64,000 nucleotides of DNA from the IMG/VR virus record IMGVR_UViG_3300024978_000001, one strand, 5' to 3'. This DNA comes from a virus. Position numbers and translations under genes: made by a program. Within the stretch, counting starts at the first letter, position 1; each line of letters opens with the position of its first letter. The notes beneath the pieces are model-generated. The model was not told where the DNA came from, ran no database searches, and worked only from the letters and a program-made list of their open reading frames with translations. Positions 1 through 64,000 of the stretch are shown piece by piece.

Positions 1-1312
<1,312 letters not shown>

Positions 1313-2544: not shown

Positions 2545-2578
2545 AAAGAAAAACCCCCGGCACCGTGGATGCCGGGGG
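2545..2578 (-). terminator. rho-independent terminator after the capsid gene
   Basis: Reverse strand reads CCCCCGGCA-TCCACGG-TGCCGGGGG (9-bp stem) followed by TTTTTCTTT, about 23 nt after the capsid stop. Confidence 0.7.
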
Positions 2579-2601
2579 CTTACGACTTTGTATATTCAGA
2601 C

Positions 2602-3624
2602 CTAGCTGTTCGGCGTCACGACGCACTGCACGAGTGCTTTCCCATCAACAACTTGGTAGCCATACACTTGGAGACCGCGAAGGATCTGACCGAATGTCAG
2701 TTCCGACCTTAAGGTCTCCACTTTACTGATTTGTGACGCGAAAGTCAAGCCGTGGGCGTGGCCCGCGAAGATCGGCCACTCGCCGGCAGCGAAGTTGGTG
2801 CTGTCGGTCGAGTTGTTCGGCAGCAGGTTCGAGATGTAGATCGTAAACCGATCCACCATGCCGAGCCGGCCGTTGCGCAGCATCGAGACGGAGTCACCCG
2901 ACAAGTAAGCCTGCCGCAGTTCGGACTGCTTGATCATGCGCCCGGCCCACGCCGGCATGACCACCCAGCGGCCGACCTCCGGGATATTCTGCTCGTCGAG
3001 CACCTGGCCCATACGCATCAGAACATCGAGTAGCTCGATGTCGCCGGCACCGGGGTTCTTGGACACCACCGAGAGCGGTGACGCCTTCGTGCCCAGGTTG
3101 ATGTTGCCGGTGATGGCGCCGGCCGTCGCGCCCTGGTTTACGGCGGCCATCTGGCCGACGATACCGTCGAGCACATCGCTGTCGACCGCGATCTTGAGCT
3201 GCTGCGCAGCGTCGTCGGACCACATCGACAGGACGTTCAGGTCGCTCTGAACCTCCATCACATCGTCAAGGACAAGCGAGAAATACTTGCCGTTGCCGAT
3301 GTAGAGCTCGACCGTGCCACCAGTCGGGCGATCGAGCCCGAGCAGGCCGTCCGACTTGTAGTCGTGGATCGAGATCGTCGGCTTGGTGCGGATCTTGACG
3401 CGGTCGCCCGTGTTCTTGATCTCGCCCTCGTAGTCCGTGTTGCTGATGGCAGCGAGCACGGTCGAGGCATAGAACTTCTCGACGAGTTTGCCCGACCAGA
3501 TCTCCGGGATGAAACCGGTGGCCTGGAGGTTGTTACCCGAGCTACCGGTGGGGTAGATCGCGGGCGAGGACGCGGACGTTGCGCCGGGAAAACCAGAAGA
3601 AGGAATGGACATTGAAGCCCCCAT
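2602..3624 (-). CDS. major capsid protein (start may be the second ATG at 3612)
   Basis: 340-aa ORF directly after the scaffold-like gene. N-terminal FIPEIWS-type motif and overall length are typical of HK97-fold podovirus coat proteins. Followed by a strong terminator. Confidence 0.8.
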   Translation of the reverse strand: MGASMSIPSSGFPGATSASSPAIYPTGSSGNNLQATGFIPEIWSGKLVEKFYASTVLAAISNTDYEGEIKNTGDRVKIRTKPTISIHDYKSDGLLGLDRPTGGTVELYIGNGKYFSLVLDDVMEVQSDLNVLSMWSDDAAQQLKIAVDSDVLDGIVGQMAAVNQGATAGAITGNINLGTKASPLSVVSKNPGAGDIELLDVLMRMGQVLDEQNIPEVGRWVVMPAWAGRMIKQSELRQAYLSGDSVSMLRNGRLGMVDRFTIYISNLLPNNSTDSTNFAAGEWPIFAGHAHGLTFASQISKVETLRSELTFGQILRGLQVYGYQVVDGKALVQCVVTPNS

Positions 3625-3670
3625 GTGTCGGGGGCTTCGCGGGTTTTATGCTGTGCGGAAGAGCCCCCGG

Positions 3671-4708
3671 TTAAGACCGGACGCGCCCCTCGTTGCCTGC
3701 GGCGATCATGTCCGCTTCGAGCCGTGCCCAGTCGTTGTCACGACCAGCCCAGAGCCCGCGTCGGCGATCCGCGTAGTTCTTCGAGATTTGCGCGCGTGTG
3801 TAGATCGGCTTTTCCGCGGGCACATCGGATTGACCCGGTGCCGGCCTTGCCCTGCCAGGAGATGCGAGCGACCCCAGATCCATCGCAGGCTGTCGTGGAG
3901 CTGCCGGGGCCGGTGACGGTGCCGACAAATCCTGCTGACGCTGCGAAGTCGGGATCGTGCTACCCGTGGCCTTCGCTTCCGTGAGGAAGTCTTTGAACAT
4001 CTGCACCACCACAGCGGCGTTCGCGGCTTGGTAGGCTTCGTTCAACATCTGACGCCTAACCTGGCCAGTGTAGATGTTTCGTATAGACAGCCAGTGCGCA
4101 AACTCGGGGCTCCGATTGACGGCAACCCAGTTCGGAATTTTCTCCGCGAGCGCGGTCTGAATTTCGCGCTGAGCCGTTGTAACGACTCGCTTTTTCAGTT
4201 CGCTGTTCTCGTTACGCAGCGCGTCCAATTCAGGCTGAATAGCCTCTCGCGCGGCGCGTTGCGTCAGGTCGATCAGCTCGTGGCCGTAGGTGTCTTCGTC
4301 TTCCGGCGTGATCAACTTTGTGTGAGGTTGAGGATTATTCCGCGAGTCAGTCCGCGGCTGCGACGCATTTCGTGCGAGCAGCGCCTGCGTCTCCTGCAGC
4401 TCGCGTGCAAGCTGCGCGTTGATCTCGGACAGCTCGCCGTTCTGCTGCTGCGACGCTTTCCAACGCCCCTGCATCGACAGGAATTTCTGTTTGTACGAGT
4501 CGGAGTTCTCGTCTTCGGCGGGAGCCGCGTGGTGCGGCGCCGGTTCGGGCGCGGGCGCGGGCGCGGGTTCTGGCGCAGGTTCGGGCGCCGGCTCGGCGTA
4601 GACCTGCTTGTGGAGCGCGTCGGCGTTGTCGCCCTGTTCTCGGATATGCTTGGGGAGGACGACGCTCGGGTCGACCGAGCCGTCTGCGAGATGCTGTAGT
4701 TCTGCCAT
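3671..4708 (-). CDS. scaffolding protein (putative)
   Basis: 345 aa, immediately upstream of the capsid gene. Contains a PAPEPAPEPAPAPAPEPAP linker and long Q/E/L/R-rich helical stretches (ELSEINAQLARELQETQALLARN). Confidence 0.6.
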   Translation of the reverse strand: MAELQHLADGSVDPSVVLPKHIREQGDNADALHKQVYAEPAPEPAPEPAPAPAPEPAPHHAAPAEDENSDSYKQKFLSMQGRWKASQQQNGELSEINAQLARELQETQALLARNASQPRTDSRNNPQPHTKLITPEDEDTYGHELIDLTQRAAREAIQPELDALRNENSELKKRVVTTAQREIQTALAEKIPNWVAVNRSPEFAHWLSIRNIYTGQVRRQMLNEAYQAANAAVVVQMFKDFLTEAKATGSTIPTSQRQQDLSAPSPAPAAPRQPAMDLGSLASPGRARPAPGQSDVPAEKPIYTRAQISKNYADRRRGLWAGRDNDWARLEADMIAAGNEGRVRS

Positions 4709-4731
4709 TGGTTTGGTCTTTCCAGGGGTGG

Positions 4732-4971
4732 TTATGGTTGCTGGGAAGCAGCGAGCGGCTTCGGATTGCGAAGCACGTCGAACAGGACGAGCGTCTGTTT
4801 CGCTCGACCTTGGAGATTGAGGATCGCTTCCGCGGGGGCGTCAGTTACCGCCACGGTAATTTCAGTCGCGTAGACCTCGAACGCGGACAAGAACGCCTGA
4901 TAGCTTTCCGGGTCCGCGTTCCGGAGCACGAAGGCGAAATGCCTAAGATGGTCGACGGCATGTGGCGTCAT
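4732..4971 (-). CDS. hypothetical protein (79 aa)
   Basis: ORF track. ATGA-type overlap with 4968..5174. Contains a palindrome copy at 4845. Confidence 0.5.
   Translation of the reverse strand: MTPHAVDHLRHFAFVLRNADPESYQAFLSAFEVYATEITVAVTDAPAEAILNLQGRAKQTLVLFDVLRNPKPLAASQQP
4845..4859. repeat. TTACCG-N3-CGGTAA palindrome copy
   Basis: TTACCGCCACGGTAA, inside CDS 4732..4971 (sense frame reads T-V-A-V). Confidence 0.95.
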
Positions 4972-5174
4972 TCAGGAAGCCCCGGGAGACCGCTCGGCGG
5001 AGGAGCCGGCTGATCCGAGTCCGCCATCGGGGTCGCCTTGGCGTAAGACTGGATGTTGGGGACGCCGCCGCCAGCGGAGGGGAGGAAGCGTTGCGACGAG
5101 CCCTTGTTCGGCGAGGAGTGCAACGTGCCCTTCTTGTGGACGCCGATCGGCGTCATATGCTTCTTGAACATCAC
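4968..5174 (-). CDS. small basic Gly/Pro/Lys-rich protein (68 aa)
   Basis: ORF track. 4-nt overlaps with both neighbours. Low-complexity sequence (HKKGTLHSSPNKGSS, GGGVPN). Confidence 0.45.
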   Translation of the reverse strand: MMFKKHMTPIGVHKKGTLHSSPNKGSSQRFLPSAGGGVPNIQSYAKATPMADSDQPAPPPSGLPGLPE

Positions 5175-5392
5175 ATCCCCCTGAATGTCGGTCCGAACGG
5201 ACTGGGCTGTCGCGAGCCGGCGGAAGGCTTTGAGCCCTTGCCGTAATCACGGCGGCTTCGCATCGGCTTTGGTGCACCGCCGACGTTGGGCATCGCGGAT
5301 GCGCCTGGCCCGAGCGCAGACGTCTGGTCGGGTTTCGGAGACGCCTTTGGCGCCCCCGGACCCTGCGATGTTCCTTTGATGCGGAACACCAT
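5171..5392 (-). CDS. small basic Gly/Pro/Lys-rich protein (73 aa)
   Basis: ORF track. Overlaps its neighbours by 4 nt and 1 nt. Low complexity (GPGAPKASPKPDQ, GKGSKPSAGS). Confidence 0.45.
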   Translation of the reverse strand: MVFRIKGTSQGPGAPKASPKPDQTSALGPGASAMPNVGGAPKPMRSRRDYGKGSKPSAGSRQPSPFGPTFRGM

Positions 5393-5637
5393 TATCGCGC
5401 GCTCGTGATACCGGCCTTCGCTGGCTCGCTCGCAGCGTAGCCGAACATCTTGCCGGAACCGCCTTTGGCGAACTTGCCGCCATTGCCGGCCGAGTCATGC
5501 TCCGTCACGCCCGGCTTCTGCGAGCCCGCGGCGTCGCTCGGCGCGGTCGTGGTTCGATCGCCATGGCCGAACATCGGGGTGTTGCCGCCTTCGGCGAACT
5601 TGGCGTTCTTCTCGGTCTTCTTGGTGAAGTTGGCCAT
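5392..5637 (-). CDS. small protein with an internal KFA-x-GG-x3-MFG repeat (81 aa)
   Basis: ATG at 5637 with GGAGGG upstream (the ORF is open from 5676). MANFTKKTEKNAKFAEGGNTPMFGH ... GGKFAKGGSGKMFGY. Confidence 0.55.
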   Translation of the reverse strand: MANFTKKTEKNAKFAEGGNTPMFGHGDRTTTAPSDAAGSQKPGVTEHDSAGNGGKFAKGGSGKMFGYAASEPAKAGITSAR

Positions 5638-5709
5638 AACGGCCCTCCGTGAAATAGGGGGATCAAATTGAACCACCCACTCGTGCGTGCAGGGCAGTTG
5701 CGACTTCGT

Positions 5710-6336
5710 TTATTGCTGGACTGCAACCATAAGGTCGCCGTCACGCGCCGGCAGATAGCGCTTCGGTTTGTCGAAGCACGACGCGATCTGGTTGACTGAT
5801 TGCGTAACGCCAGGAACAACAACGCACGCCCCCGGCTTCGCCTGCAGGAACGCCTCCACCGCCTCGTTGACGTGGCACCAGGAACGGATCTGATCGCCGG
5901 AGCCGAAGATCGTGATCTCGTCCTGCGCTGCGCACTTCTCCATAAAGCTGTGGCCGCCATCGCCATAGACGTTCGGCAGGCGGACAACGGCGCAGCCGAA
6001 ATAGCGGGCGTAGTCCTCGCACACGCGCTTGGAGATGGCGTAAGGGTTGACCGGGTAGTTCACCATGGCGCTGGACGCGAACACCACGCGATCGGTGTAC
6101 CGCTCGAAGACCCGCAACGACCCTATGATGTTAGTGCTCGCGTCGCTTCGCGCATCCTTGCAATAGGCGTCGGTTTGCGCCGCGAGGTGATAGACCTGTT
6201 TCGCATCCGGAAGATCGCAGTCGCGAATATCCGTTCCACGCTTCAAGTCGATGCGATGGATGATCTCGCCGCGGCACTCAAGCCGCGCGCACAGATGTTT
6301 GCCGATGAACCCGTCGGCGCCGGTGACCACGATCAC
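5710..6336 (-). CDS. short NAD-dependent epimerase/dehydratase-like (SDR) protein, about 208 aa
   Basis: VIVVTGADGFIGKHL Rossmann motif (GxxGxxG) and YAISK (YxxxK). GTG start at 6336 overlaps the TGA of the upstream gene (GTGA). The longer ORF to 6588 overlaps the methyltransferase and was rejected. Confidence 0.7.
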   Translation of the reverse strand: MIVVTGADGFIGKHLCARLECRGEIIHRIDLKRGTDIRDCDLPDAKQVYHLAAQTDAYCKDARSDASTNIIGSLRVFERYTDRVVFASSAMVNYPVNPYAISKRVCEDYARYFGCAVVRLPNVYGDGGHSFMEKCAAQDEITIFGSGDQIRSWCHVNEAVEAFLQAKPGACVVVPGVTQSVNQIASCFDKPKRYLPARDGDLMVAVQQ

Positions 6337-6911
6337 AGCGGCTTCTCCAGGATCAGCAGGCGTTCGGCCTTGTGGGTTTGATACTCTGTCACTTGCATCT
6401 CCGAGTAGAGCGACAGCAGCACATCGACCATCGGCTTGAGCGTGCCCCCGGGGCACTTGTATGGGCACGACTCCTCGATCGCATAGACGCCGCCGGGGCG
6501 CAGCATCGGCCACAGCAGCCGGCAGAGATGGATCTGGGGGAGGGGGTCGTGCACCGCGTCGTCGCAGATGAAATCGAACTGTGGCCATCTGAACGCATGG
6601 AGCGCGTCGGCAAGGCTGCGTTCATCGTAGGCATCGCACAGCGCGGTATGAATGCGCGGCTGATCGTTGAAGATGAACCGCGCATCATTGTCGACGCCAT
6701 ACACTTCCGCCTCGGGGAGATAATCCCGCCACGCGAACAGGCTGGCGCCGACGACATTGTTGGGGATGTCGCGGAAGCCGCAGATCCCGACTTCCAGCAC
6801 ACTCTTCACGCGGTCGCGATCGAGGTGCTTTTCATAAACGGGGGAGTACCCCCACCCCCACGGGCCGCCTTTATCAGTGCCGTATTTTATAAAAAGATCA
6901 TCCAGCAACAT
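6333..6911 (-). CDS. class I SAM-dependent methyltransferase (putative)
   Basis: ATG at 6911 with GGAGAA upstream. KYGTDKGG N-terminal motif, VLEVGICGF (motif I-like) and VYGVDND (motif II-like). Confidence 0.65.
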   Translation of the reverse strand: MLLDDLFIKYGTDKGGPWGWGYSPVYEKHLDRDRVKSVLEVGICGFRDIPNNVVGASLFAWRDYLPEAEVYGVDNDARFIFNDQPRIHTALCDAYDERSLADALHAFRWPQFDFICDDAVHDPLPQIHLCRLLWPMLRPGGVYAIEESCPYKCPGGTLKPMVDVLLSLYSEMQVTEYQTHKAERLLILEKPL

Positions 6912-7275
6912 TGTGTTTCTCCAGATATCTAATAAGCGCGCCAAGCCTCGGAATGCTTTCCTTCACATTGCCGAGCGCTTGATTGCAGCCGGCGCAGAGA
7001 ATGCCGCGCACGACTTTCGTTTTGTGGCAGTGATCAGTGTGGCAGTTTTTGCCGACGCCCTTGAGCGGGTCGCCGCACGCAGCACACTGATATCCTTGCG
7101 CCGCAAGCATGGCATCTCGCTGCTCTAGCGTAACGCCGTACTTACGCTTGCATCCAGCACGCCTACGGTTGAGCTTTTCTCGCTCATGGTTGGCGTAGTA
7201 ATTGCGCATGCGAGCGGCCTTCGCCCGCTCAGGGTGATCCTTCCGCCATTTTGCGACCCGCTGTGCTGGGGTCAT
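6898..7275 (-). CDS. recombination endonuclease VII-like protein
   Basis: YGVTLEQRDAMLAAQGYQCAACG ... HTDHCH ... RGILCAGCNQALG, the signature of the Endonuclease_7 (T4 gp49-like) family. Confidence 0.8.
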   Translation of the reverse strand: MTPAQRVAKWRKDHPERAKAARMRNYYANHEREKLNRRRAGCKRKYGVTLEQRDAMLAAQGYQCAACGDPLKGVGKNCHTDHCHKTKVVRGILCAGCNQALGNVKESIPRLGALIRYLEKHNVAG

Positions 7276-7931
7276 ACTGAGGCTCTAAAATTGCTGAACA
7301 GGCTGCCGTTGTGGTCAGCCGCGTACCAGTGGAATGGAAGTTTGGTTTTCTGCTCGACGCGGGCCCAGGTGTTGACTTCCCACTCGACGTTCTTGGTGCG
7401 TGCTGTGTGTTGCCTGGCGGCCACCCGACACTCGTAGTCGAGCTGGTCGACCATTTTGCGCGGCACCACGAGCACTGAGCCGCAGAACCGCCAACAGGGG
7501 TACGCGCTCTCGACCGCGAGCGGCCGGGGCCAACAGCCTGGGGCGTAGATCGCATTGTCGTCGAGCCTGCTGACGAAGTCGGAAATTACCGTGGCGGTAA
7601 CGCCGGGGAGGCGAAACACGCCGTAGTCGACCCAACACAGCACGTCCGCGTCAGCGTCTTCGTCGGCGGCCTGCACCAACCATGTCGTCTTCTGATGGTT
7701 GACGCAGTGGTAGGCGAGCGTGTTCTTCGCCGGGTTGTCGCCTTCGGAGACGCGCGGGATGTAGTCGAGACCGCGGACGTATTTCCACATCCAGGTGTCC
7801 TCGACGCGCTGGTAGAACGCCTTCTTGGGCACGGGTACGGCGCCGAGCAACTCGCCTAGCTTGCCATACTCGCCCGGACCGCGAGGGTGGCCGACGATCG
7901 GGATATAACCGGTAACGAGGCGCACCTTCAT
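7272..7931 (-). CDS. hypothetical protein; candidate glycosyltransferase by context only
   Basis: 219-aa ORF, ATGA-coupled to both neighbours within the sugar-modification gene run. No motif I can name with certainty. Confidence 0.5.
   Translation of the reverse strand: MKVRLVTGYIPIVGHPRGPGEYGKLGELLGAVPVPKKAFYQRVEDTWMWKYVRGLDYIPRVSEGDNPAKNTLAYHCVNHQKTTWLVQAADEDADADVLCWVDYGVFRLPGVTATVISDFVSRLDDNAIYAPGCWPRPLAVESAYPCWRFCGSVLVVPRKMVDQLDYECRVAARQHTARTKNVEWEVNTWARVEQKTKLPFHWYAADHNGSLFSNFRASV
7586..7600. repeat. TTACCG-N3-CGGTAA palindrome copy
   Basis: TTACCGTGGCGGTAA, inside CDS 7272..7931 (sense frame reads V-T-A-T-V). Confidence 0.95.
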
Positions 7932-9913
7932 CGGTCCAACTCCAGCATCGCCGCAACATCGCCGGCGCTGACGGTCGCGAGCCAGGCGCTGCAGTCACGC
8001 TCGCCGAACGAAACAACCAGGTCGTCGTTCTGCTGCGCGAGGCCGGCGGCGAACTCGATCTGGACGTCGTGGAAGACGAACGGCAGCGACAAGCGCGGGT
8101 TGATAAGCTCCGCATCGAGCCAGGCGAACCGGTGCTGGTAGACCCGGCGCCCATGCGCTGGGTGCGCGATCGCTTCGTGGACGACCGTCAGATAGCCGCC
8201 CTTGAACGGGATGTAAGGACTGCCGCCGCTGATGTTGTCGACCGCGAACCGGCAGGGGGTCTTCTGCTGCAGCGAACCGCGCTGGATCTTGTCCAGGCGA
8301 TACATAAACGGAAGGCCCTTCGTCGGCCCAAGAACAGGCGCCCAGTTCTTCTCGCATTGGGTCGCGTCGCTGATTGCGCTCCATGACTCGACAAGGACCG
8401 TATTGGCGACCGGGTCGCGGCGGAGAAACCCGTGGACCTGCTGCGGTATACCGCTGGGCGTCGTCTCGCGGGCGCAGGCAATGAACTGCCGCTCGCCCTG
8501 GTGCCAGAAGATCCGCATATCCTCCAGACCGATCACCATCGGAAACGCCGCCGGTGGCCGGTCCCACTGCACCTTGATCGGGTTGCGGCTCGACAGGTTG
8601 GGGCGGAGCTGCAGCAGCCAGTTCTCAGTCTCGATCGGCGCGTCCCAGCATCCTTTGGGCCCGATCATGTAGCGGCCATGCTCGTCGATGCGGTAGTTCA
8701 CCGTGCGGAGGAGCAGCTCAAGGCCGCCGGCCGGCCGGTTCGTCACGCAGGGGTTCATCGCCGCAAACCCGGTGGGGGGCGTGAAGTCAACGACGCGGTC
8801 CCTGTAACTCGGGCAAAATGCTTTCAGCGGGCGCAGATAGAACACCATGTTCGACCGTGCGTTGCCCCGGACCGGCTCTGGGACCTGCGGATCGAGCGCT
8901 AGGCCATTCGTGATGTGGAACGCGCGCTCGCGCGTCCGGGGGTCATAGTAGCCAGCGATCGAATACTCCTCGCGGAAACCCCAGTCGTAGACCCAGTTCT
9001 CGATAAACAGCCGGTCGTTCGGGCGCGGGATCGTGATGCCTTTCTCAGCGAACAGCATCGCGCCCGCGTTGTCCCCCTTCATTCGATAGTGTTTGGCAAG
9101 CGCATGCAGCGGCTCGGCACGGGTAGGGCGCATCTGATACGCCTTGAGCGTCGCGCTGAGGTATTCGTCTTCCTTACCCTGCTGCTCCAGGCAGTTGGCG
9201 AGATTAACCTGGGCCGTCCAGTCCTCTTCGTCCCAGGTCGGCAGCTCTAGCTTCCTGCGATAGCAACGCTCCGCTTCGGCGAACTGTCCGGCGTCGCGGT
9301 AGGTGTTGCCGAGATAGAACCAGGTGCGGCCGTTGTTCGGGTCGGTCTTGAGATCTTCCTCGAACAGGCGGATGTCACGTTCGAACTTCTCGCCGCGATT
9401 GGCGCCGTCCGCGTGGTCGATGAAGTGGACCCCGGTGAGCACGCCACTCGACGGCGCGTTCAGGTATTCATGCGTGACCCCGATATAGCGCGCGGTCGAG
9501 GACACCGCGAGAACACGGAGGTTGTTGTATGAATACGTGCCGGCGAGCTGCGGGATCTCGTAGGCTTCACCAGTGAGCCCGAAGAACGCGGCCGGGTCGC
9601 CGCGCAATTCCATATCCGCGTCGCACAGCAGAAAGTAATCGAACGGCGGCGCGTCCGGATGCTTGGACCAGCTTCGGGCGGCATCGAGCGCTTGGTTGCG
9701 GGCTTGTGAGAAATTCACGAACGCGCCGCGGGCCACAATGCCTTTGACGCCGTTGTCATTACCCCACTTCTCAATGATCTCGACTGTGTCGTCGGTCGAT
9801 CCGGTATCGAGGATGGCAAAGGACGCAATAGCGTCCTTGACACTGTCGAGCATACGCACAAGGCGAGCGCTCTCGTTGCGCACAATCGCGCACAAGCAAA
9901 GACTTTCTGGCAT
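7928..9913 (-). CDS. multidomain family 2 glycosyltransferase with TPR-like middle region and a C-terminal domain of unknown function
   Basis: The N-terminus LCLCAIVRNESARLVRMLDSV...FAILDTGSTDDTVEII and CDADM (DxD) are typical of GT-A/GT2. The middle has TPR-like WFYLGNTYRDAGQFAEAERCYRR. The C-terminal approximately 300 aa carry IGLEDMRIF and KNWAPV motifs. Confidence 0.75.
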   Translation of the reverse strand: MPESLCLCAIVRNESARLVRMLDSVKDAIASFAILDTGSTDDTVEIIEKWGNDNGVKGIVARGAFVNFSQARNQALDAARSWSKHPDAPPFDYFLLCDADMELRGDPAAFFGLTGEAYEIPQLAGTYSYNNLRVLAVSSTARYIGVTHEYLNAPSSGVLTGVHFIDHADGANRGEKFERDIRLFEEDLKTDPNNGRTWFYLGNTYRDAGQFAEAERCYRRKLELPTWDEEDWTAQVNLANCLEQQGKEDEYLSATLKAYQMRPTRAEPLHALAKHYRMKGDNAGAMLFAEKGITIPRPNDRLFIENWVYDWGFREEYSIAGYYDPRTRERAFHITNGLALDPQVPEPVRGNARSNMVFYLRPLKAFCPSYRDRVVDFTPPTGFAAMNPCVTNRPAGGLELLLRTVNYRIDEHGRYMIGPKGCWDAPIETENWLLQLRPNLSSRNPIKVQWDRPPAAFPMVIGLEDMRIFWHQGERQFIACARETTPSGIPQQVHGFLRRDPVANTVLVESWSAISDATQCEKNWAPVLGPTKGLPFMYRLDKIQRGSLQQKTPCRFAVDNISGGSPYIPFKGGYLTVVHEAIAHPAHGRRVYQHRFAWLDAELINPRLSLPFVFHDVQIEFAAGLAQQNDDLVVSFGERDCSAWLATVSAGDVAAMLELDR

Positions 9914-9954
9914 ATGGCTTCCTGGTTAGTTTGCTGGGGCCGAAGCCCCAGCGA

Positions 9955-10581
9955 TTAAACCGGCGGGTACGGAACGTCGTTGAGGCCGCCGGACGAGATC
10001 TTGAGCGCGCCGACACCAGTCGCCCCGCCCGGGTTCCAGACAGCGCCGGCGATAAACGGATCGCTCGCCGGCGGCTTCCAAACAGTTGTGACGGCAGGAC
10101 CAGCGGGGCCGGTCGGACCGGTGCCGATATGCTGGCCATCGGCGAACACCGCCGCGGTGGGCCCAGTCGGACCCGTAGCGCTCGCCGGCCCAGTAGGACC
10201 GCGGGGGCCGACAGACGAACCTGTCGGACCTTGCTGCCCGGTCGGGCCTGTGGCTCCGGCGGCGCCAGTGTTACCAGTCGGTCCTTTCGGCCCTACGCGC
10301 CCGGTGCTTCCAGTCGGGCCGGTGGTCGCGAGCGGGCCGGCGGGGCCGGTCGGGCCGAGGCCCTGTGGCCCTGTCGGTCCAGTCGTGCCGGCGGGGCCGG
10401 TCGCGCCTGTAGCAGTGCCCGTCGGCCCCGTGGGGCCGATGATGTCCTTGTCGTTGATCAGGTCGACAACCGCCTTAAGCACAACCGGAATTGCGCCATC
10501 GTCGTAGGTGTCCTTCGACGCCAGCGACGGGTCGAGCAGTTGTTTGCTGTTGAACGGATAACCGAGCGGTGAGTTCGCCAT
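9955..10581 (-). CDS. collagen-like repeat protein (fibre-like), 208 aa
   Basis: About 110 aa of G-X-Y triplets ([26 protein letters not shown]...) flanked by globular ends. The C-terminal PPASDP...VWN motif is shared with 10594..11100. Confidence 0.8.
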
Positions 10582-10593
10582 TCGCTCCTCCTA

Positions 10594-11100
10594 TTAACCG
10601 GCGGAGACGGTGAGCACGCCCGCGTTATTCCAGACCTGACCGCTAACACGAGGATCAGATGTCGGCGGCACCACAACGATTGCGACGGTACCAGTCGGCC
10701 CAGTCGGACCAGCCGGCCCGGTGAACCCCGCGCCTGTCGGACCAGTGACGCCCGCGCCCGTGGGTCCGGTCGGACCGGTCGAGCCCGGCGACGGACCAGT
10801 CGCGCCGATCGCACCCGCGGGACCAGTCGCTCCGGGACCGGTAGGACCCGTCGCACCTGTTGCGCCTTGTGCGCCGACAGGGCCAGCAGGACCCTGTGCA
10901 CCGATGGCTGAACCTGTCGGACCCGTGACGCCGGCGGCGCCGGTCGGTCCAGTCGCGCCTTGCGACGGGCCGGTCGGGCCAGCAGCGCCGGTCGGGCCGG
11001 TGGGGCCGCCGATGTTGCCAGCGTTCACGGCATCGACAACCTGCTTCAACACGTTGCCGATCATGTTGCGGTCGTAGTTACGGCTGGACAAAATCGCCAT
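10594..11100 (-). CDS. collagen-like repeat protein (fibre-like), 168 aa
   Basis: G-X-Y run ([32 protein letters not shown]...). The C-terminal [17 protein letters not shown] is paralogous to the end of 9955..10581. Confidence 0.8.
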
Positions 11101-11135
11101 CAGCGTGGCTCCCTAAAATGTGCCTCCGTACTGGA

Positions 11136-11160
11136 GGCGAGATAGTTGCGGTTTTCTTAA
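11136..11160. repeat. 25-nt element ggcgagatagttgcggttttcttaa, copy 1 of 2
   Basis: Identical to 20316..20340. In both copies the TAA stop (reverse strand) of the upstream gene lies at the same place in the element. Confidence 0.95.
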
Positions 11161-12026
11161 GCCTCGACGTAGCTGGCTTGACGGCCGAAGCCGACGATCT
11201 TGATCGCGCGTTTGATCGGATAAACGGTCACGATGGAATAAGTGAGCAGTGGGTACGCGGAGACGGCCGTCGCATGCAGTGTGCAGTAAAGGATGCCGTT
11301 GACGCGGGCGACGAAGTTGTCGTGTCGGTGGCCGCAGATGCAGCCGATGACCTTATTTCCGAACGACTCAAGAATGGTGCGGACCGCAGCAGCGTTGCTC
11401 AGCCCCCACGAAAACCCGTCCAATGCGTAATAGACGGGGTAATGGCAGAAGATCACGCAAGGGTACGGTGAAGCCGCGATCGTCGCAGACAGCCATGCGC
11501 GTTGCGTCGGCGGGATGTAGGAGACGTAAGGGCTGACACCTTGCTGGTTTGACGAGATCGAAAGATCGTTAGAGTCGTCGTCGGAAAGATAATTTCCGTC
11601 GAGCACGATGAATGTCACGCCGCCGCGCGTGAACGAGTACCACTTGCTCGGTTGGCCGGTGACCGACATCACCTGCTCCTTGGTGAGCCAAGTCACCTCG
11701 TGGTTGCCGATATTGTGATATTTCGGCACGTTGACCGCGAGCAAATTGTCGATGTCCGCCAGGTCGGTCAACGCCGCGCTGGCGTTCGCGGAGCCGTCAA
11801 TGAAGTCGCCGTTCTGAAACACGAATGCGAGATCGGTGCGCGCATTGAAGATCGCCGTAATGTCGGGGATCTTCTTCGCCGCGTCCTGAAAATACTTGCC
11901 GCCCTGATTGGGGTCCGTCGCCTTGAGCGGGTCATGATGCGTGTCGGTCACCCAGCCGAACGACACCGACACGCCCTTCGGCCCGAACAGCTCACCCGTT
12001 GCCCTGCTAGGGGAGATCAATGCCAT
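11157..12026 (-). CDS. calcineurin-like metallophosphoesterase
   Basis: GWVTDTHHD (DxH), NGDFIDG (GD), GNHE (GNH) and CGHRHD (GHxH), in canonical order. Confidence 0.75.
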   Translation of the reverse strand: MALISPSRATGELFGPKGVSVSFGWVTDTHHDPLKATDPNQGGKYFQDAAKKIPDITAIFNARTDLAFVFQNGDFIDGSANASAALTDLADIDNLLAVNVPKYHNIGNHEVTWLTKEQVMSVTGQPSKWYSFTRGGVTFIVLDGNYLSDDDSNDLSISSNQQGVSPYVSYIPPTQRAWLSATIAASPYPCVIFCHYPVYYALDGFSWGLSNAAAVRTILESFGNKVIGCICGHRHDNFVARVNGILYCTLHATAVSAYPLLTYSIVTVYPIKRAIKIVGFGRQASYVEA

Positions 12027-12030
12027 GGCG

Positions 12031-13017
12031 TCACCCGAAATAGTTATGCAGGTCGGTGGCCTGCTGTGTAGTGAGCGGCGCGGTCACAAGCACGGCTGAC
12101 ACCTTGCCCTGCCACCAGTTCGAAGCGGCAAGTGCGGGGATCGTGCCCACCGTGAACAGCGTCGGTGTGCTGGTGTTCGGCACCACGGCAGCGGTCACCG
12201 CGCCGGCGCTGTCAACGTCTATCGACGTTTGGGTCGCACCGTGGATGCTGCGCAAAACATGCACACCGGATAAATCGACATGGGTGTCGGTAGCGTTCGT
12301 GGCCGCGGCGCCGGTGCCGGTGTAGGAACGGGCGCGGTTGACGCCGCCGACAGGAAGACGGGCGACAGAGCGGCCGTTGACAACGCTGGTGGCAGCGTAC
12401 CCCGCCACATGGCGCGTAGTGGCGTCGGCTGCGGCCACATCCTGCGAACACACCACCCAGATTTCGCAAGGGGTAGCGCCGGCCGGCAGCAGTGACATGA
12501 ACGCGGCATCGGTGCATTTGAGATACTGCTGGGCGCCGTCAAAGGTGATGCACGGTGCGCCATTGAGCCCCGTCGGGTCGTACACCGGCTTAAGATTGGG
12601 GGTCGACTGCGCCAGGTTGGCCCCAGTCACGAGGCCAAGCCACGACGACACCGCGTCGGTGTAAGTCGCATCAGAGAGCGCGGTGATCGTGTCGGAGCGG
12701 TTGGCGTCCCAGTATTCGATCAGGCTGCTGCCGAGCGCCGTCACCGGATTGTAGTTCGACGACGGCCCGGTATAGCCAGGGATAATCACGGTCTTGGCGT
12801 TGCGCGCCGCGAGCCCGGTGAGCCCGGTGAGCGCATAGACGTCTTCCCACGTCCCGGTCGGGCCCGCCGCCTGCTGCAGTGCGTCGATCTGCCCCCACAC
12901 GGGAAACGTGCCAGTCGGCCCGGTGAACGCCGGTAAAATCTGGACGCCTTTGTACGTGCCGGTCGGGCCGAGCGGGCCGTCGAGAACGCGGACAAGTTTC
13001 TGGGTGTTGACGGTCAT
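12031..13017 (-). CDS. fibre or receptor-binding-like protein with degenerate GPTGT repeats and a possible LamG/concanavalin-like lectin domain
   Basis: The N-terminus has GPTGTY, GPTGTF and GPTGTW. The SSWLGLVTGANLAQSTPNLKPVYDPTGLNGAPCITFDGAQQYL pattern resembles LamG-type phage proteins. Confidence 0.5.
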   Translation of the reverse strand: MTVNTQKLVRVLDGPLGPTGTYKGVQILPAFTGPTGTFPVWGQIDALQQAAGPTGTWEDVYALTGLTGLAARNAKTVIIPGYTGPSSNYNPVTALGSSLIEYWDANRSDTITALSDATYTDAVSSWLGLVTGANLAQSTPNLKPVYDPTGLNGAPCITFDGAQQYLKCTDAAFMSLLPAGATPCEIWVVCSQDVAAADATTRHVAGYAATSVVNGRSVARLPVGGVNRARSYTGTGAAATNATDTHVDLSGVHVLRSIHGATQTSIDVDSAGAVTAAVVPNTSTPTLFTVGTIPALAASNWWQGKVSAVLVTAPLTTQQATDLHNYFG

Positions 13018-15329
13018 CAGCCGACGCCCCCGGCGACCGAACCCTTAACGCCCGTCATGTGCGGCGTCAGATGCGTCTGCGGCCCCATCGCCTGTGACGG
13101 CGCCGGCGGCTTCATGCCCGACGATTGCCTGGCCGCCTCCTGCATGCCGCCGTGTTGGCCAGCGTGCATGCCCGGGTCGCTGGAAGCGCCCTGGCCGCCT
13201 CCTGGCGCAGCTTCTGGCGCGATCGCGCCCGGCGTACCGATATGCGCGGGTGGGCCCTCCGGCATATGCGCCCGAGCGGCCAGCACACCAGAAGTGAGCT
13301 CGGTCGAGATACGCTTAACGCCAGCCTCAACGCCTTTGTTAACCGCGGCCACGATCGCTTGTTCGATGTCTCCACCTTGCGCTGCCTGTTGCTGTTGCTG
13401 TTTCTCCATCTTCTCGATCTCGGCGTCGGACGGCACCACCTGGTCGCCCTGAATGCCGATCGTCGAGGACACCGATCGCAGCACCGCGGCGCGACCGCCG
13501 ATGCCCATGATCTTCATGTCGGTCGGGTTGTTCGTTGCCGTCAGGAACTCGATCTGGCGCTGCCGCAGCGTCTCGCGCTGGATCGCCACGCTCACGCCGG
13601 TGACGGAAACTTTTTCCTGACCGGTGAGCATCCCGGTGCGATCGGTCAGCATCAGCAGGTCGAATAACTGCAGCAGGCTTTCCTCGATCACGTCGCGGTC
13701 GATGTTCGCGGACACCGTCTGCAGGATCTTCGAGGCGTTGCCCATCAACATCGCCAGGCCCGAAGCCGTACGCCCGGCGCCGCCGCCAGCTTGGCCGCCG
13801 ACGTATTTCGGGATCGCCGACACGTCGTCCGAGATCGAAGTGAACTCCTGCAGGCACTGGATCAGGGCCTGAGCGTTGTTCGCCGGCATGAAGAAGGAGA
13901 TCGGTTGCTTGGCGTTGTTGTTCACGGGGTCGGTGCGGGTGTGCCACCGCTTCCACGGATACATCTCCTCGCCGTTCTCCTCCGGCGCCAGCATGTCGTC
14001 GTTGATGACGACCTGCGGCCCCGACGAGATCGACAGGTTGTTGATCAGCGCGCGCAGCGTGGCGTTGGCGGCTTCCTGCAGGTCGGCGAGCAGATCGGTC
14101 AGACCATTGCCGACAGGCGTACCCGGCACTTTCTCAAAACTCGTGATGAAATACGGATGTCGCTGACGTGGTGAAGGCGACAGGTGTGCCTTGATGACGT
14201 GCGAGCCGATAACCCAGACCTGAACATGATAGTCACGAAGCTCGTCTTGGACAGCGAGGCCGTAATCTTGAAGTACGCGTCCTTGGACATTGCCGTTGAA
14301 CTCCATCATGGTGATCATCGCTGATCTGTTCCACGCCGGGTTTTCGCGGCTCTCCAACACGCTGCGCTCGGCGTCGGTGGTGTCCCAGTTGTCATAGAGA
14401 CCGCCGCGGCCGTACTCGTCGAGCACCGCGCGAATTTCATCGGAGTTGTAGCCGGGCAGGTCGAGCAGATCGTTGAGCTCGGCGCGCGTCACGCGCAGCT
14501 TCTCGATCACGTTGGCGTTGGCGATGTCGGCGACGCCCGGGGTGAACCAGATGTCAAATGGGCTGACCCGGTTCCACGTCAGCACCGGCGTCTGCTGCAC
14601 GGTGGCGCTGCCGCTCGCCCAGTCCACCTTGGGCATGATCTTGACTACGGGGCCCTTGATGCAGGCGAACGGGAAGATCGGCAGGTCGACGATGAACTCG
14701 GCAAGCGCGTGGTAGAAGCTGCCCTCGCGCAGCATGTCCTGGATCTTGTCCTGAGCATACCGCGCCTGTTGCGCCGCTTTCTTCTTCGCCGCGGTCTCGG
14801 CGCCCTCTAGCAACGCCTCGCGTCGCTGCCATAGCTCCTGCGGCGTCGGCGGCGGTAGCCCGGTTTGCTGAACCTGCTGGCTCTCGGCCTGGATCAGCTT
14901 GTCGATTTCCTGCATGATTTCGGGCGGGATGTCCGGATTGGCCGGCGGGTCGAGCGCCCACGGGATGTCGTCGCCGAGATAGATGTCGCGAAGCAGCGAC
15001 GCGGCCGCGCGGCACTTCTGGGCAATCAGCCGTGCGAACACCTGGCTGCCGCCCCATTTACTGATCTCGGCGAGCTTCGTCGGGTCGTACTGGCCATTGA
15101 ACGTCCGCAACGCCGACAGCATGCGGTTGGACCAGCCGGCGTTGGTGTTGCGGTGATTGCGAAAAATTTCAAACTGCGTGCGGACATAACCAGCCAACTC
15201 AGGATACTGAGGCTGTTGGGTCGCAGTTTGTGCGGCGGCTGCGTCGCTGTCCCGTTGCTGGATCTGTCGTTCCAGTTCCGCGGGAGGGATTACCTGTAGG
15301 ACACCGGCCTGGCCAAGCTGATCTGCCAT
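13017..15329 (-). CDS. portal protein (putative); ATG at 15329, ORF open from TTG at 15398
   Basis: About 770 aa, the next large gene after the large terminase. Gly/Ala/Pro-rich C-terminal tail. ATGA coupling to the downstream gene. Called by size and position. Confidence 0.65.
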   Translation of the reverse strand: MADQLGQAGVLQVIPPAELERQIQQRDSDAAAAQTATQQPQYPELAGYVRTQFEIFRNHRNTNAGWSNRMLSALRTFNGQYDPTKLAEISKWGGSQVFARLIAQKCRAAASLLRDIYLGDDIPWALDPPANPDIPPEIMQEIDKLIQAESQQVQQTGLPPPTPQELWQRREALLEGAETAAKKKAAQQARYAQDKIQDMLREGSFYHALAEFIVDLPIFPFACIKGPVVKIMPKVDWASGSATVQQTPVLTWNRVSPFDIWFTPGVADIANANVIEKLRVTRAELNDLLDLPGYNSDEIRAVLDEYGRGGLYDNWDTTDAERSVLESRENPAWNRSAMITMMEFNGNVQGRVLQDYGLAVQDELRDYHVQVWVIGSHVIKAHLSPSPRQRHPYFITSFEKVPGTPVGNGLTDLLADLQEAANATLRALINNLSISSGPQVVINDDMLAPEENGEEMYPWKRWHTRTDPVNNNAKQPISFFMPANNAQALIQCLQEFTSISDDVSAIPKYVGGQAGGGAGRTASGLAMLMGNASKILQTVSANIDRDVIEESLLQLFDLLMLTDRTGMLTGQEKVSVTGVSVAIQRETLRQRQIEFLTATNNPTDMKIMGIGGRAAVLRSVSSTIGIQGDQVVPSDAEIEKMEKQQQQQAAQGGDIEQAIVAAVNKGVEAGVKRISTELTSGVLAARAHMPEGPPAHIGTPGAIAPEAAPGGGQGASSDPGMHAGQHGGMQEAARQSSGMKPPAPSQAMGPQTHLTPHMTGVKGSVAGGVG

Positions 15330-29367: not shown

Positions 29368-29539
29368 GCAGCTACGCGAGCGAATGGTTGCGGCGCTCCG
29401 ACGCGCCGAAGAGCGCCGCTATCAGGTTTGGACGCCGCAGTGCCGTTACCGAGTAGCTCACAAAGTATGGAGTTGGCGGCTCGAATACTCAATTCTCTTA
29501 AAGAAGGAGGCCAAAAAGCATGGCATTAGCTACTACTGA
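29333..29539 (+). CDS. hypothetical protein (start uncertain)
   Basis: ORF track. Overlaps both neighbours. MSPEQLRERMVAALRRAEERRYQ... Confidence 0.45.
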   Translation: MKPNNMTSMSPEQLRERMVAALRRAEERRYQVWTPQCRYRVAHKVWSWRLEYSILLKKEAKKHGISYY

Positions 29540-33858: not shown

Positions 33859-34199
33859 TTTCTGAAATGGAGTACGCTGAGTTCGTGGACTCGCTGTTCG
33901 CGAAGAACCACATCGGTGTCGAAGGTAGCGTACATGCGGCGCTCGGCATCGGAGGTGAAGCCGGTGAAGTTGTCGACATGATCAAGAAGCACTGGACCTA
34001 CAACAAGCCGCTGGACCGCGCTGGCCTGGTCGAGGAGATCGGGGACCTGATGTTCTACGTGCAGGCGCTTTGCAACCTACATGGGCTGACACTGGGCGAC
34101 GCCATGGAAGCGAACGTGGAAAAACTGACTAGGCGATATCCGAAAGGCTATTCGGACGCTGCTGCTTTGGCTCGTGCAGACAAGAACGGAAGCAAATAA
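33855..34199 (+). CDS. mazG: MazG-like nucleoside triphosphate pyrophosphohydrolase
   Basis: GIGGEAGEVVDMIKK ... VEEIGDLMFYV ... ANVEKLTRRYP (all-alpha NTP-PPase signature). GTGA overlap with the polymerase stop. Confidence 0.8.
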   Translation: MISEMEYAEFVDSLFAKNHIGVEGSVHAALGIGGEAGEVVDMIKKHWTYNKPLDRAGLVEEIGDLMFYVQALCNLHGLTLGDAMEANVEKLTRRYPKGYSDAAALARADKNGSK

Positions 34200-34639
34200 T
34201 GATTGAGACTCTTGGAGTGACGAAGCGTATTTACCTCGCCGGCCCGATGCAGGGCATCCCGCATTTCAATTTCCCTCGTTTCAATGCAGTCGCTGCTGCG
34301 CTCCGCGCTAATGGGCACACGGTGTTCAACCCGGCCGAGAAGGACAATGAGCGGCACGGCAAGGATATCAGCGCGGACAACGCCAGCGGATCGGTTGCTG
34401 ACGCCAAGTCCAACCACGGTTTTTGCCTCCGCACCGCTCTCTCCGCCGACCTCAAGTTCATCTGCGAGGTAGCGAACGTGGTCGTGCTGCTGCCGGGCTG
34501 GGAGAAGAGCCAGGGCGCGCAGGCTGAATGGCGCACCGCGCTCGCGCTTAAGAGCGAGGGCATGGAAGTTATCTACCTCACCGAGGAGTTGACGCAGCTC
34601 ATGGAGCGGGCTGCGCAGATCATCGCGGAGGCTGCGTGA
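34199..34639 (+). CDS. DUF4406 / nucleoside 2-deoxyribosyltransferase-like protein
   Basis: RIYLAGPMQGIPHFNFPRFNAVAAALRANGHTVFNP ... WEKSQGAQAE, a pattern typical of the DUF4406 family. TAATG overlap with the previous gene. Confidence 0.6.
   Translation: MIETLGVTKRIYLAGPMQGIPHFNFPRFNAVAAALRANGHTVFNPAEKDNERHGKDISADNASGSVADAKSNHGFCLRTALSADLKFICEVANVVVLLPGWEKSQGAQAEWRTALALKSEGMEVIYLTEELTQLMERAAQIIAEAA

Positions 34640-63090: not shown

Positions 63091-64000
<910 letters not shown>

Follow-up and report, generated by a model that had tools for sequence, protein, structure and literature searches.

Why should a phage carry a run of sugar-active enzymes among its head genes, and what would these enzymes modify? 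The question is raised by a locus in the virus record IMGVR_UViG_3300024978_000001, a stretch of 64,000 nucleotides that was analysed at its full length (hereafter the window) and that derives from an uncultured, soil-type phage of 64 kilobases (kb) and ~62% G+C. An earlier note, made from the sequence alone, had placed a sugar-modification cassette of five translationally coupled genes at 5710-9913, inside the late head-gene block between portal and scaffold. That reading is supported as regards the nature and position of the cassette, which is, however, not an oddity of one phage, since it is found across a large clade. Our answer, which we regard as fairly probable, is that the block 5710-13016 constitutes a fibre-plus-glycosylation module, in which collagen-like virion fibres rich in Gly-Pro-Thr (GPT) would be O-glycosylated in the cytoplasm, the glycan being capped by methylation. 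The genes of the block, with lengths in amino acids (aa), are the following.

12031..13017, minus strand: 328-aa protein with GPTG motifs, directly after the portal gene
11157..12026, minus strand: calcineurin-like metallophosphoesterase, a lineage-specific accessory (PF00149, E 3.8e-10)
10594..11100, minus strand: collagen-like fibre protein 1, 168 aa (PF01391, 30.3 bits against a cut-off of 27.2; PHROG tail-fibre families)
9955..10581, minus strand: collagen-like fibre protein 2, 208 aa (PF01391, 34.2 bits against 27.2)
9389..9913, minus strand: 661-aa glycosyltransferase (GT661), domain 1 (aa 1-175), GT2 / GT-A catalytic domain (PF00535; DTGS.D and DAD motifs)
9014..9388, minus strand: GT661, domain 2 (aa ~176-300), tetratricopeptide repeats (TPR; multiple Pfam TPR families)
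7931..8881, minus strand: GT661, domain 3 (aa ~345-661), predicted beta-propeller of GH130/GT108-like fold (AlphaFold2 and Foldseek)
7272..7931, minus strand: 219-aa protein, predicted GT-A-fold glycosyltransferase of an undescribed family (AlphaFold2 and Foldseek)
6898..7275, minus strand: endonuclease VII (PF02945, E 1.8e-21)
6333..6911, minus strand: class I S-adenosylmethionine (SAM)-dependent methyltransferase, 192 aa (PDB TylE/MycE; phrog_21658)
5710..6336, minus strand: short extended short-chain dehydrogenase/reductase (SDR), resembling nucleoside diphosphate-sugar epimerases/reductases, 208 aa (PF01370)

All five open reading frames (ORFs) of the original cassette are present on the minus strand where the earlier note had put them, and the overlaps proposed between them are borne out at all four junctions: the GT661 and 219-aa genes share an ATGA (7928-7931), as do the 219-aa and endonuclease VII genes (7272-7275), the endonuclease VII and methyltransferase genes overlap by 14 nucleotides (methyltransferase ATG at 6911), and the methyltransferase and SDR genes share a GTGA (SDR GTG at 6336). 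An external gene caller starts endonuclease VII at a later ATG, giving 103 aa instead of 125 and a 62-bp gap. The fibre-like and phosphoesterase genes noted at 9955-13017 are indeed there, as two collagen-like genes, the metallophosphoesterase gene and the 328-aa gene.

The three-domain glycosyltransferase and the collagen-like proteins

The GT2 domain claimed for the 661-aa protein stands, with PF00535 scoring 36.2 bits against a cut-off of 23.3; the same model is found in all 41 members of the family (E <= 0.1), and the DTGS.D and DxD motifs (D98-A99-D100) are invariant in the 41 sequences. The region described as TPR-like likewise resolves into TPR repeats at aa 177-293 (Pfam and PDB), matching PDB TPR proteins, the TPR region of OGT included. 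When a family profile of the GT2 domain was compared with the PDB, it retrieved SunS (6.9e-11), GmaR (3.2e-9) and 7msk, a SunS-family structure (8.4e-6), the next glycosyltransferase being chondroitin synthase at only 1.4e-3; these three are the only significant relatives of the domain among glycosyltransferases of solved structure, and SunS acts on a peptide and GmaR on a protein. The order of the domains, GT2 (aa 1-175) followed by TPR (aa 177-293), is also that of SunS-type enzymes, and the best NCBIfam model for the protein is that of the SunS family (TIGR04195), at 32.1 bits against a cut-off of 350 and so below membership. On this comparison, we propose the GT2 domain as a candidate initiating protein O-glycosyltransferase and the TPR region as a putative binding site for the acceptor protein.

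For the C-terminal domain, which the earlier note had called unknown, searches of Pfam, PHROG, NCBIfam and PDB sequences gave no match, and a fold can now be assigned from a model. Its 322 aa, modelled with 40 homologues, form an all-beta propeller (AlphaFold2 pLDDT 94.3), and the top 44 Foldseek matches in the PDB are almost all GH130 or GT108 (E ~1e-9 to 3e-6, TM 0.55-0.65), including GH130 beta-mannoside phosphorylases, a mannoside synthase and the Leishmania GDP-mannose-dependent mannosyltransferases MPT-1/2. Phage genes annotated as 'beta-mannosyltransferase' and 'MGP' are among the tblastn matches of the glycosyltransferase, in agreement with the propeller fold. Since the link to GH130 is undetectable in sequence, our claim is restricted to the fold: PF04041 is found in 0 of the 41 family members at E <= 0.1 and a profile of the propeller family retrieves no GH130 entry from the PDB sequences, only chance matches, which rules out membership by sequence. 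One Bradyrhizobium homologue has a sub-threshold PF04041 match (19.1 against 26 bits). Across the 41 sequences, G462, E464, D465 and R467 of a 'GLEDMR' segment are invariant and L463 is nearly so; this segment may be the counterpart of the GH130 'G-x-E-D-P-R' motif. Further invariant residues are R482, E483, K522, N523, H579, R590, Y592, H594 and R595. From the modelled fold, the propeller is proposed to carry out beta-mannosyl or similar transfer, from GDP-mannose or mannose 1-phosphate, onto the first sugar. At least 120 full-length homologues of the 661-aa protein (44-100% identity) were found, many on contigs of 62-68 kb, and tblastn against the PLSDB plasmids returned only homologues of the N-terminal half, sparsely annotated.

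Directly upstream lie the collagen-like genes. The 168-aa protein consists of a short conserved N-terminal domain, 32 Gly-X-Y (GXY) triplets, 17 of them with Thr at Y, and a C-terminal PPTSDP...VWN motif, and is kept in relatives at 37-92% identity; the 208-aa protein (27 GXY triplets, 14 with Thr at Y) is its paralogue, the N- and C-terminal motifs being common to both. A long collagen-like gene begins at 941, runs off the start of the window and ends at 63091, and is therefore given in two parts.

1..941, minus strand: long GPT/GFT/GYT-rich collagen-like fibre gene, 5' part (GXY repeats)
63091..63999, minus strand: the same gene, 3' part with the C-terminal globular domain (PF01391, E 1.4e-13)

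It has at least four tandem modules of ~95 aa rich in GPT, GFT and GYT, and 37 of the 50 triplets of the 3' part have Thr at Y; the copy number of its repeats may be collapsed or variable in assemblies. All runs of at least eight GXY triplets in the window fall within its collagen-like genes, of which there are at least three; GPT is their dominant triplet and Thr occupies Y in 52-74% of triplets. We propose the 168-aa and 208-aa proteins as candidate glycan acceptors, the long fibre being possibly a further one.

The 328-aa protein, for which Pfam, PHROG and PDB searches gave no match, has three or four GPTG(T/S)[FYW] motifs in its N-terminal ~85 aa, set among short beta-like segments. This part is conserved in relatives, and the ~240-aa C-terminal extension is specific to the lineage, the protein of relatives having 83-85 aa and no extension, or 344 aa with a TIG domain. 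Examples of its loci are L003 2263-2520, L004 7792-8826 and L006 8370-8627. The GPTG module might belong to a decoration protein or be one more substrate of glycosylation.

Two further enzymes would act on the glycan. The 219-aa protein, also called unknown in the earlier note and without a match in Pfam, PHROG, NCBIfam or PDB sequence searches, now has an assigned fold, that of a GT-A glycosyltransferase. Its AlphaFold2 model (pLDDT 91.3) matches best, by Foldseek in the PDB, the glycosyltransferase domain A064R-D1 of the chlorovirus PBCV-1 (E 3e-5, TM 0.53-0.57, 12-13% identity), an entry whose description reads 'involved in the glycosylation of the major capsid', followed by GT6 enzymes; in BFVD it matches Pithovirus proteins (TM 0.77-0.80, E 1e-10 to 1e-11), one of them named as a Fringe-like glycosyltransferase. 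The family has 1009 cluster representatives at 50% identity and no Pfam model, and the enzyme is proposed, on the strength of the model, to add a further sugar. The class I SAM methyltransferase of the earlier note is recovered through phrog_21658 (3.8e-12) and the PDB entries 8ia9 (TylE, 2.4e-14) and 3ssm (MycE, 2.5e-13), its score against Pfam Methyltransf_24 (21.8 bits) lying under the cut-off of 26.3. Its residues 7-155 align to 163-307 of 8ia9; the N-terminal auxiliary domain (~160 aa) of MycE and TylE is missing, alignment being confined to chain residues 163-332. As judged by these alignments, the protein resembles TylE and MycE, which are sugar O-methyltransferases, in their catalytic domain, and is a candidate for O-methylation, or capping, of the glycan. 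Profile searches place GT2 and SDR above their Pfam cut-offs, and the methyltransferase is identified by its PHROG and PDB matches.

Conservation in related phages and counterparts in bacteria

A portal-based scan of IMG/VR gave 483 relatives, of which the best 80 loci were analysed. Where at least 5 kb of sequence follows the portal gene, which is so in 41 loci, the three-domain glycosyltransferase is always present, and in 38 of the 41 a collagen-like gene lies between portal and glycosyltransferase. The usual order is portal, a GPTG protein of ~85 aa, two (sometimes three or four) collagen-like genes, the glycosyltransferase, the 219-aa glycosyltransferase, a methyltransferase, small ORFs, scaffold and capsid. 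The conserved core in these comparisons is made up of the GPTG-motif protein, two collagen-like proteins, the three-domain enzyme, (in most cases) the 219-aa enzyme and the methyltransferase, and the cassette is ancestral to a large clade of uncultured phages, its glycosyltransferase family having bacterial counterparts.

Both the 219-aa enzyme and the TylE-like methyltransferase occur in 23 of the 31 loci with at least 8 kb downstream, the 219-aa enzyme alone in 5 and neither in 3. In L044, L053 and L084, the loci without both genes that were examined, an unrelated Methyltransf_11 enzyme takes the place; L026 has a Methyltransf_3 O-methyltransferase, and L032 and L063 have an extra paralogue of the 219-aa enzyme and a full-length SDR after the methyltransferase. 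A methyltransferase follows the glycosyltransferase in every lineage variant examined, drawn from three different families, which argues for selection on methylation of the product. In L081 (15974-18487), the genes for an N-acetylmuramoyl-L-alanine amidase and for a 359-aa collagen-like protein follow the glycosyltransferase instead of preceding it, so the gene order of the module is not fixed.

The remaining genes of the block behave otherwise. The SDR is unusually short, as the earlier note had it (PF01370 E 1.4e-20, 74.2 bits against 20.9; 208 aa against 335-347 aa in related phages): it keeps GADGFIG (GxxGxxG), ASSAM (the catalytic Ser) and YAISK (YxxxK), and lacks loops and the C-terminal ~60 aa of its longer phage homologues. 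The short form is kept in four lineages (the window, L007, L009 and L036), is located between terminase and portal in three other genomes and is absent from most, and SDRs of the full 335-347 aa stand at the same position after the methyltransferase in L032 and L063; by homology, we propose an accessory role in tailoring the donor sugar. Endonuclease VII, identified as claimed (PF02945, 76.3 bits against 23.6, E 1.8e-21; phrog_2914, 5.8e-31), has homologues at six or more positions and in both orientations in L009, L012, L016, L017, L019, L023, L025, L041 and L044 (before the large glycosyltransferase, after the 219-aa one, before portal, before terminase, after small ORFs, and reversed) and is missing from many related genomes, which marks it as a free-standing mobile nuclease gene outside the sugar pathway. 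The phosphoesterase, for which a PDB sequence search gave no match, is confined to the window and L002 among the 80 related loci. The five coupled genes therefore do not hold together as the functional unit that had been supposed, endonuclease VII being mobile and the SDR accessory, and the conserved unit takes in the collagen-like genes upstream; that the five form one pathway is ruled out by the shifting positions of endonuclease VII and the non-conserved SDR and phosphoesterase.

The closest deposited phage is Rhizobium phage RHph_TM27A (portal 57% identity, capsid protein 67% identity), in which the order is portal, three small ORFs, scaffold and capsid. The earlier note had put the split between portal and scaffold/capsid at about 8 kb; the distance from portal to scaffold measures 8.3 kb in the window against ~0.65 kb in RHph_TM27A, and on this layout 4709-13016 amounts to ~7.6 kb of extra DNA relative to RHph_TM27A. 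That phage has no such glycosyltransferase, and no collagen-like gene was detected anywhere in its genome. The genes that flank the insertion in the window are listed below; the terminase identified in the earlier note was confirmed, as were the portal, the scaffold-position protein and the capsid protein.

13017..15329, minus strand: portal protein, upstream boundary of the inserted module (phrog_332, E 4e-62; 57% identity to the RHph_TM27A portal; SU10_portal in homologues)
4732..5676, minus strand: small ORFs of the backbone, of 94, 73, 68 and 79 aa, lying between cassette and scaffold gene
3671..4708, minus strand: scaffold-position protein, 345 aa (phrog_13678)
2602..3624, minus strand: major capsid protein, downstream boundary (phrog_267, E 3.1e-49; Pfam Phage_capsid_4 in homologues)

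Counterparts of three of the small ORFs (94, 68 and 79 aa) turn up repeatedly in related loci, and the 94-aa ORF has a weak blastx counterpart between portal and scaffold in RHph_TM27A (47% identity, E 7.5e-5); the small ORFs at 4732-5676 are ancestral and stand outside the insertion.

Bacterial relatives were sought in one genome per prokaryotic species, which gave 539, and the best 80 loci were read from ORF lists and a scan for GXY runs. No portal or capsid homologue was found near the glycosyltransferase in these 80 loci. A GXY-repeat ORF lies within 8 kb of the enzyme in 53 of the 80, upstream in ~48 and downstream in 3, and this bacterial association is the main independent support for a collagen-like acceptor. 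Homologues with GT2 and TPR only (Actinomycetota and others) have the same collagen-like neighbourhood, and it is therefore with the GT2-TPR module that the association goes. In Mesorhizobium and Bradyrhizobium the glycosyltransferase is the N-terminal module of fusions of 1309 aa and 1895 aa, respectively, with more glycosyltransferase, GDSL and GT25 domains, and is divergent from genes for DUF4347+collagen proteins of 1515 aa and 1659 aa (Pfam Collagen E 1e-153 and 1e-175), with no phage genes near these loci. In Bradyrhizobium sp. Pha-3 (L086, 7977-13664 and 2034-7013), the 1895-aa gene has the order GT2-TPR-propeller-GT2-Anp1-GDSL-GT25 and diverges from the giant DUF4347+collagen gene; in Mesorhizobium carmichaelinearum (L103, 7827-15127 and 1377-5924) a giant glycosyltransferase fusion diverges in the same manner from a DUF4347+collagen gene. 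The rhizobial loci look like a cellular system for glycosylated collagen-like surface proteins.

Methylation recurs in the bacterial loci: tblastn detects a segment resembling the phage methyltransferase (25-34% identity) within the fused glycosyltransferase ORFs of Mesorhizobium and Methylocystis, and the neighbouring ORF in Mesorhizobium is a GT2-TPR-FkbM methyltransferase. Anp1 and Caps_synth-like domains, besides GT25, are included in the bacterial fusions. Upstream of the Methylocystis locus is an ABC transporter, which together with HlyD-like and outer-membrane partners may form a type I secretion system, a reading based on N-terminal sequences only.

The acceptor, the proposed pathway and the alternatives

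The earlier note had suggested that virion proteins, possibly the adjacent collagen-like proteins or the capsid, are the acceptors. A virion protein is indeed the likeliest acceptor, and strong comparative evidence favours the collagen-like proteins; the capsid is neither supported nor excluded. The preference for a collagen-like acceptor draws on three observations: (i) the phyletic pattern, RHph_TM27A having neither component; (ii) the association in bacteria; and (iii) the precedent of BclA, from the exosporium filaments of Bacillus anthracis and B. cereus, which bears an O-glycan on Thr of PTG triplets capped by a 2-O-methylated sugar (PMC6222408), the oligosaccharide ending in an O-methylated deoxy sugar (PMC6222408, PMC7793302). 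As with BclA, the GPT-rich collagen-like proteins described here adjoin glycosyltransferases, a sugar O-methyltransferase-like enzyme and an SDR; BclA, however, belongs to a Firmicutes spore and not to a phage of probable Alphaproteobacteria, and the glycosylation here is predicted.

If the module works as a glycosylation pathway for these fibres, it might proceed as follows: (i) late in infection, the TPR region of the soluble 661-aa enzyme would hold unfolded or nascent GPT-rich collagen-like chains, the candidates being the 168-aa and 208-aa proteins, with the GPTG-motif protein as a probable and the long fibre of the window ends as a possible addition; (ii) the SunS/GmaR-like GT2 domain would place a first hexose or N-acetylhexosamine on Thr or Ser in the cytoplasm; (iii) the GH130/GT108-like propeller would add a beta-linked sugar of the mannose type; (iv) the 219-aa GT-A enzyme would add another sugar, perhaps a 6-deoxyhexose, the nucleotide donor of which would be tailored by the short SDR; and (v) the TylE/MycE-like methyltransferase would O-methylate the glycan as a cap. 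The glycosylated chains would then trimerise and enter the virion as fibres, where the glycan could stabilise or hydrate the triple helix and alter the fibre surface shown to hosts, enzymes and the environment. Endonuclease VII would be an unrelated mobile gene in this scheme and the phosphoesterase a lineage-specific extra. Consistent with cytoplasmic action, no membrane segment was found in any cassette protein (maximum KD19 1.37), from which we take all of them to be cytoplasmic.

Several points weigh against this account. The match to SunS covers mostly the first ~80 residues of the nucleotide-binding half and reaches 32 bits where membership would take 350; the GH130-like assignment comes from the fold alone, at moderate TM scores (0.55-0.65); and the substrate, the sugars, the linkage and the order of the steps are all inferred. 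Adjacency within one clade could stem from shared descent instead of function, and 27 of the 80 bacterial loci have no collagen-like ORF in the available flank. Many phages carry collagen-like fibres without any glycosyltransferase, and those described here may be head, neck or tail fibres. Finally, Thr at Y is common in bacterial collagen-like proteins generally (PMC8968730), and its enrichment in the window is therefore not specific evidence.

The alternative that survives best is that the cassette glycosylates other virion proteins (major capsid, decoration or tail), the collagen-like genes being mere neighbours. The cassette does belong to the head operon, with the scaffold and capsid genes directly downstream of it; for the 219-aa enzyme, the best PDB match is the capsid-glycan enzyme A064R-D1 of PBCV-1; and capsid glycosylation is documented for cluster F1 mycobacteriophages such as Che8 and Rita, the glycosyltransferases of which modify the phage's own virion proteins (PMC11256854, citing Freeman et al. 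2023, Cell Host Microbe). In those phages, however, the genes are near the right genome end, the acceptor is the capsid and the hosts are actinobacterial (PMC11256854); here the genes are in the head operon, collagen-like fibres are the inferred acceptor and the enzyme families are different, and no annotated mycobacteriophage glycosyltransferase showed homology in a phage-database tblastn with the 661-aa enzyme. Because the family is tied to collagen-like genes in bacterial loci without a detected portal or capsid homologue, and RHph_TM27A keeps a 67%-identical capsid protein while having neither the glycosyltransferase nor the collagen-like genes, we consider this alternative unlikely.

Modification of a host envelope polysaccharide, such as lipopolysaccharide O-antigen, exopolysaccharide or capsule, with the effect of blocking superinfection or releasing progeny from debris, is an improbable explanation, in line with the judgement of the earlier note that it fits the placement less well. 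GT2, SDR and methyltransferase genes are typical of polysaccharide loci, homologues are named 'glycosyltransferase involved in cell wall biosynthesis', and the GT25, Anp1 and Caps_synth-like domains of the bacterial fusions point the same way. On the other hand, membrane segments and a flippase, polymerase or Gtr-type component are all missing from the cassette, the solved structures nearest to the GT2 domain are of enzymes that modify proteins or peptides, the position of the glycosyltransferase within the late structural operon is fixed in 41 of 41 relatives, and the family is associated with collagen-like genes across phyla. O-antigen modification of the Gtr type (GtrA/B/C) in particular is ruled out by the lack of a membrane-embedded protein in the cassette.

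It is very improbable that the enzymes make a free or lipid-linked oligosaccharide or a small glycoconjugate, for example a mannoside osmolyte or signal. GH130 enzymes and the Leishmania MPTs do act on free oligomannosides, according to the PDB descriptions, and TylE and MycE methylate sugars on small molecules; such a product would nevertheless sit poorly with a TPR region fused to a SunS/GmaR-like glycosyltransferase, with the strict conservation of that enzyme in the virion operon and its association with collagen-like genes, and with a cassette that has no transporter or lipid-carrier enzyme. Hypermodification of phage DNA at hydroxymethyl- or hydroxy-pyrimidines, with endonuclease VII and the methyltransferase as parts of the system, can be dismissed as scarcely credible: DNA-glycosylating phage glycosyltransferases are known (bioRxiv 10.1101/2023.12.21.572611; PMC13326640), a nuclease gene lies within the cassette and the genome encodes MazG, DUF4406 and a dGTP/dATP diphosphohydrolase-like protein, but the replication block yielded no gene for a cytosine methyltransferase, TET/5mYOX, a dCMP/dUMP hydroxymethylase or a thymidylate-synthase-like protein, the position of endonuclease VII in relatives bears no relation to that of the glycosyltransferase, the methyltransferase resembles sugar O-methyltransferases, and the TPR region and the collagen association would be left unexplained.

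Glycosylation of collagen-like fibres, the account that we prefer, has partial parallels in other known systems. In PBCV-1 A064R, two glycosyltransferase domains are joined to a SAM methyltransferase, by which a terminal rhamnose is 2-O-methylated (PMC9614988), and the pathway proposed here follows a similar logic. Like A064R and A061L, the enzymes here are virus-encoded, soluble, cytoplasmic, multi-domain builders of glycans, and the methyltransferase gene stands just downstream of the 219-aa gene, with only the mobile endonuclease VII between; in PBCV-1, however, the acceptor is the major capsid protein, with atypical N-glycans, whereas the module described here spreads its domains over several genes and would start with a SunS-like GT2 that has TPR and propeller. 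The N-terminal GT2 domain followed by a helical/TPR region is common to SunS/ThuS and Listeria GmaR, which act on peptide or protein in the cytoplasm; GmaR O-GlcNAcylates flagellin, and 7msk is ThuS. The relationship to these enzymes is remote, there is no glycocin precursor, transporter or flagellin context, and SunS and GmaR lack the GH130-like domain. Glycocin glycosyltransferases make O- and/or S-linkages (PMC12457901, PMC8620827). The propeller has the fold of the GH130 beta-mannoside phosphorylases and the GT108 Leishmania mannosyltransferases, but without significant sequence similarity, and is fused here to a protein-type GT2-TPR module. Mimivirus, with L230, likewise encodes collagen-like proteins and their glycosylating enzyme (PMC9614988, PMC8968730); L230 hydroxylates Lys and glucosylates hydroxylysine, whereas here there is no hydroxylase, Lys is scarce and the likely sites are Thr and Ser. 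In the literature, we found no account of glycosyltransferases tied to collagen-like fibres of phages, nor any that connects GH130-like domains with collagen-like proteins. A virus or bacterium that glycosylates its own structural proteins is known in kind; what differs here is the enzyme architecture, the inferred acceptor and the host range.

Genome setting and significance

Structural genes form a block on the minus strand of the window and replication genes one on the plus strand, and a second minus-strand block encodes very large proteins and an endolysin. The window is an almost complete, circularly permuted phage genome of ~64 kb, since the identical 661-aa protein is present on many metagenomic contigs of 63.9-64.0 kb and the long collagen-like gene wraps around the window ends. 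Megablast of 5000-14000 against INPHARED gave zero matches, and a close cultured relative is thus absent from that collection; the phage has an SU10-type portal, and its host is probably among the Alphaproteobacteria. A strong terminator-like hairpin (2551-2581, minus strand; 14-bp stem, T-run) lies directly 3' of the major capsid gene, and no convincing terminator was found between portal and this hairpin, which is compatible with late co-transcription of the portal-to-capsid block; a scan for sigma-70 promoters gave 3 sites where 2.2 are expected and was uninformative. A possible mirror of the hairpin (3613-3639, plus strand) is placed between the genes for scaffold and capsid.

Outside the module, three further observations were made. 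On the plus strand at ~33860-35181, after DNA polymerase A (31849-33858), the MazG (PF03819), DUF4406 and dATP/dGTP diphosphohydrolase N-terminal domain (PF18909) genes are adjacent, a trio that suggests manipulation of the nucleotide pool, possibly with a non-canonical DNA base. The early/replication block encodes at 29520-30839 (plus strand) a DUF2201 metallopeptidase with a VWA-like protein, the RHph_TM27A copy being annotated as 'metallopeptidase domain-containing protein'. A 1727-aa protein at 47169-52352 (minus strand), in a putative tail/internal-virion-protein block, has an inorganic pyrophosphatase-like domain (PF18823) at aa 438-572.

To conclude, a few actinobacteriophages are, to our knowledge, the only phages for which glycosylation of the virion has been shown, and we know of glycosylated bacterial collagen-like proteins mainly from Bacillus and Clostridium spores. 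The module predicts virion glycosylation and glycosylated collagen-like proteins in a large and abundant uncultured clade (483 portal relatives in IMG/VR, >120 full-length homologues of the glycosyltransferase), and the same prediction extends to cultured rhizobia and methanotrophs, where genetics is possible. A GT2-TPR gene beside GXY repeats thereby becomes a genomic marker for glycosylated collagen-like fibres, and two families that had been uncharacterised, the propeller domain and the 219-aa GT-A proteins (~1000 clusters), now have an assigned fold. The findings also suggest that phage fibre surfaces, as determinants of host range and immunity, can be sugar-coded by variable accessory enzymes. 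More tentatively, and as a possibility to which we give somewhat less than even weight, GT2-TPR(-GH130-like) enzymes might be the signature of a widespread and so far unrecognised machinery for the glycosylation of collagen-like proteins in prokaryotes. Hyphomicrobiales and other bacteria would employ it on giant DUF4347-collagen proteins of their surface, possibly exported by type I secretion, and this large phage clade would have captured it for methyl-capped fibre glycans. If so, the phage glycans may resemble host surface fibres, with consequences for fibre stability, adsorption or recognition.

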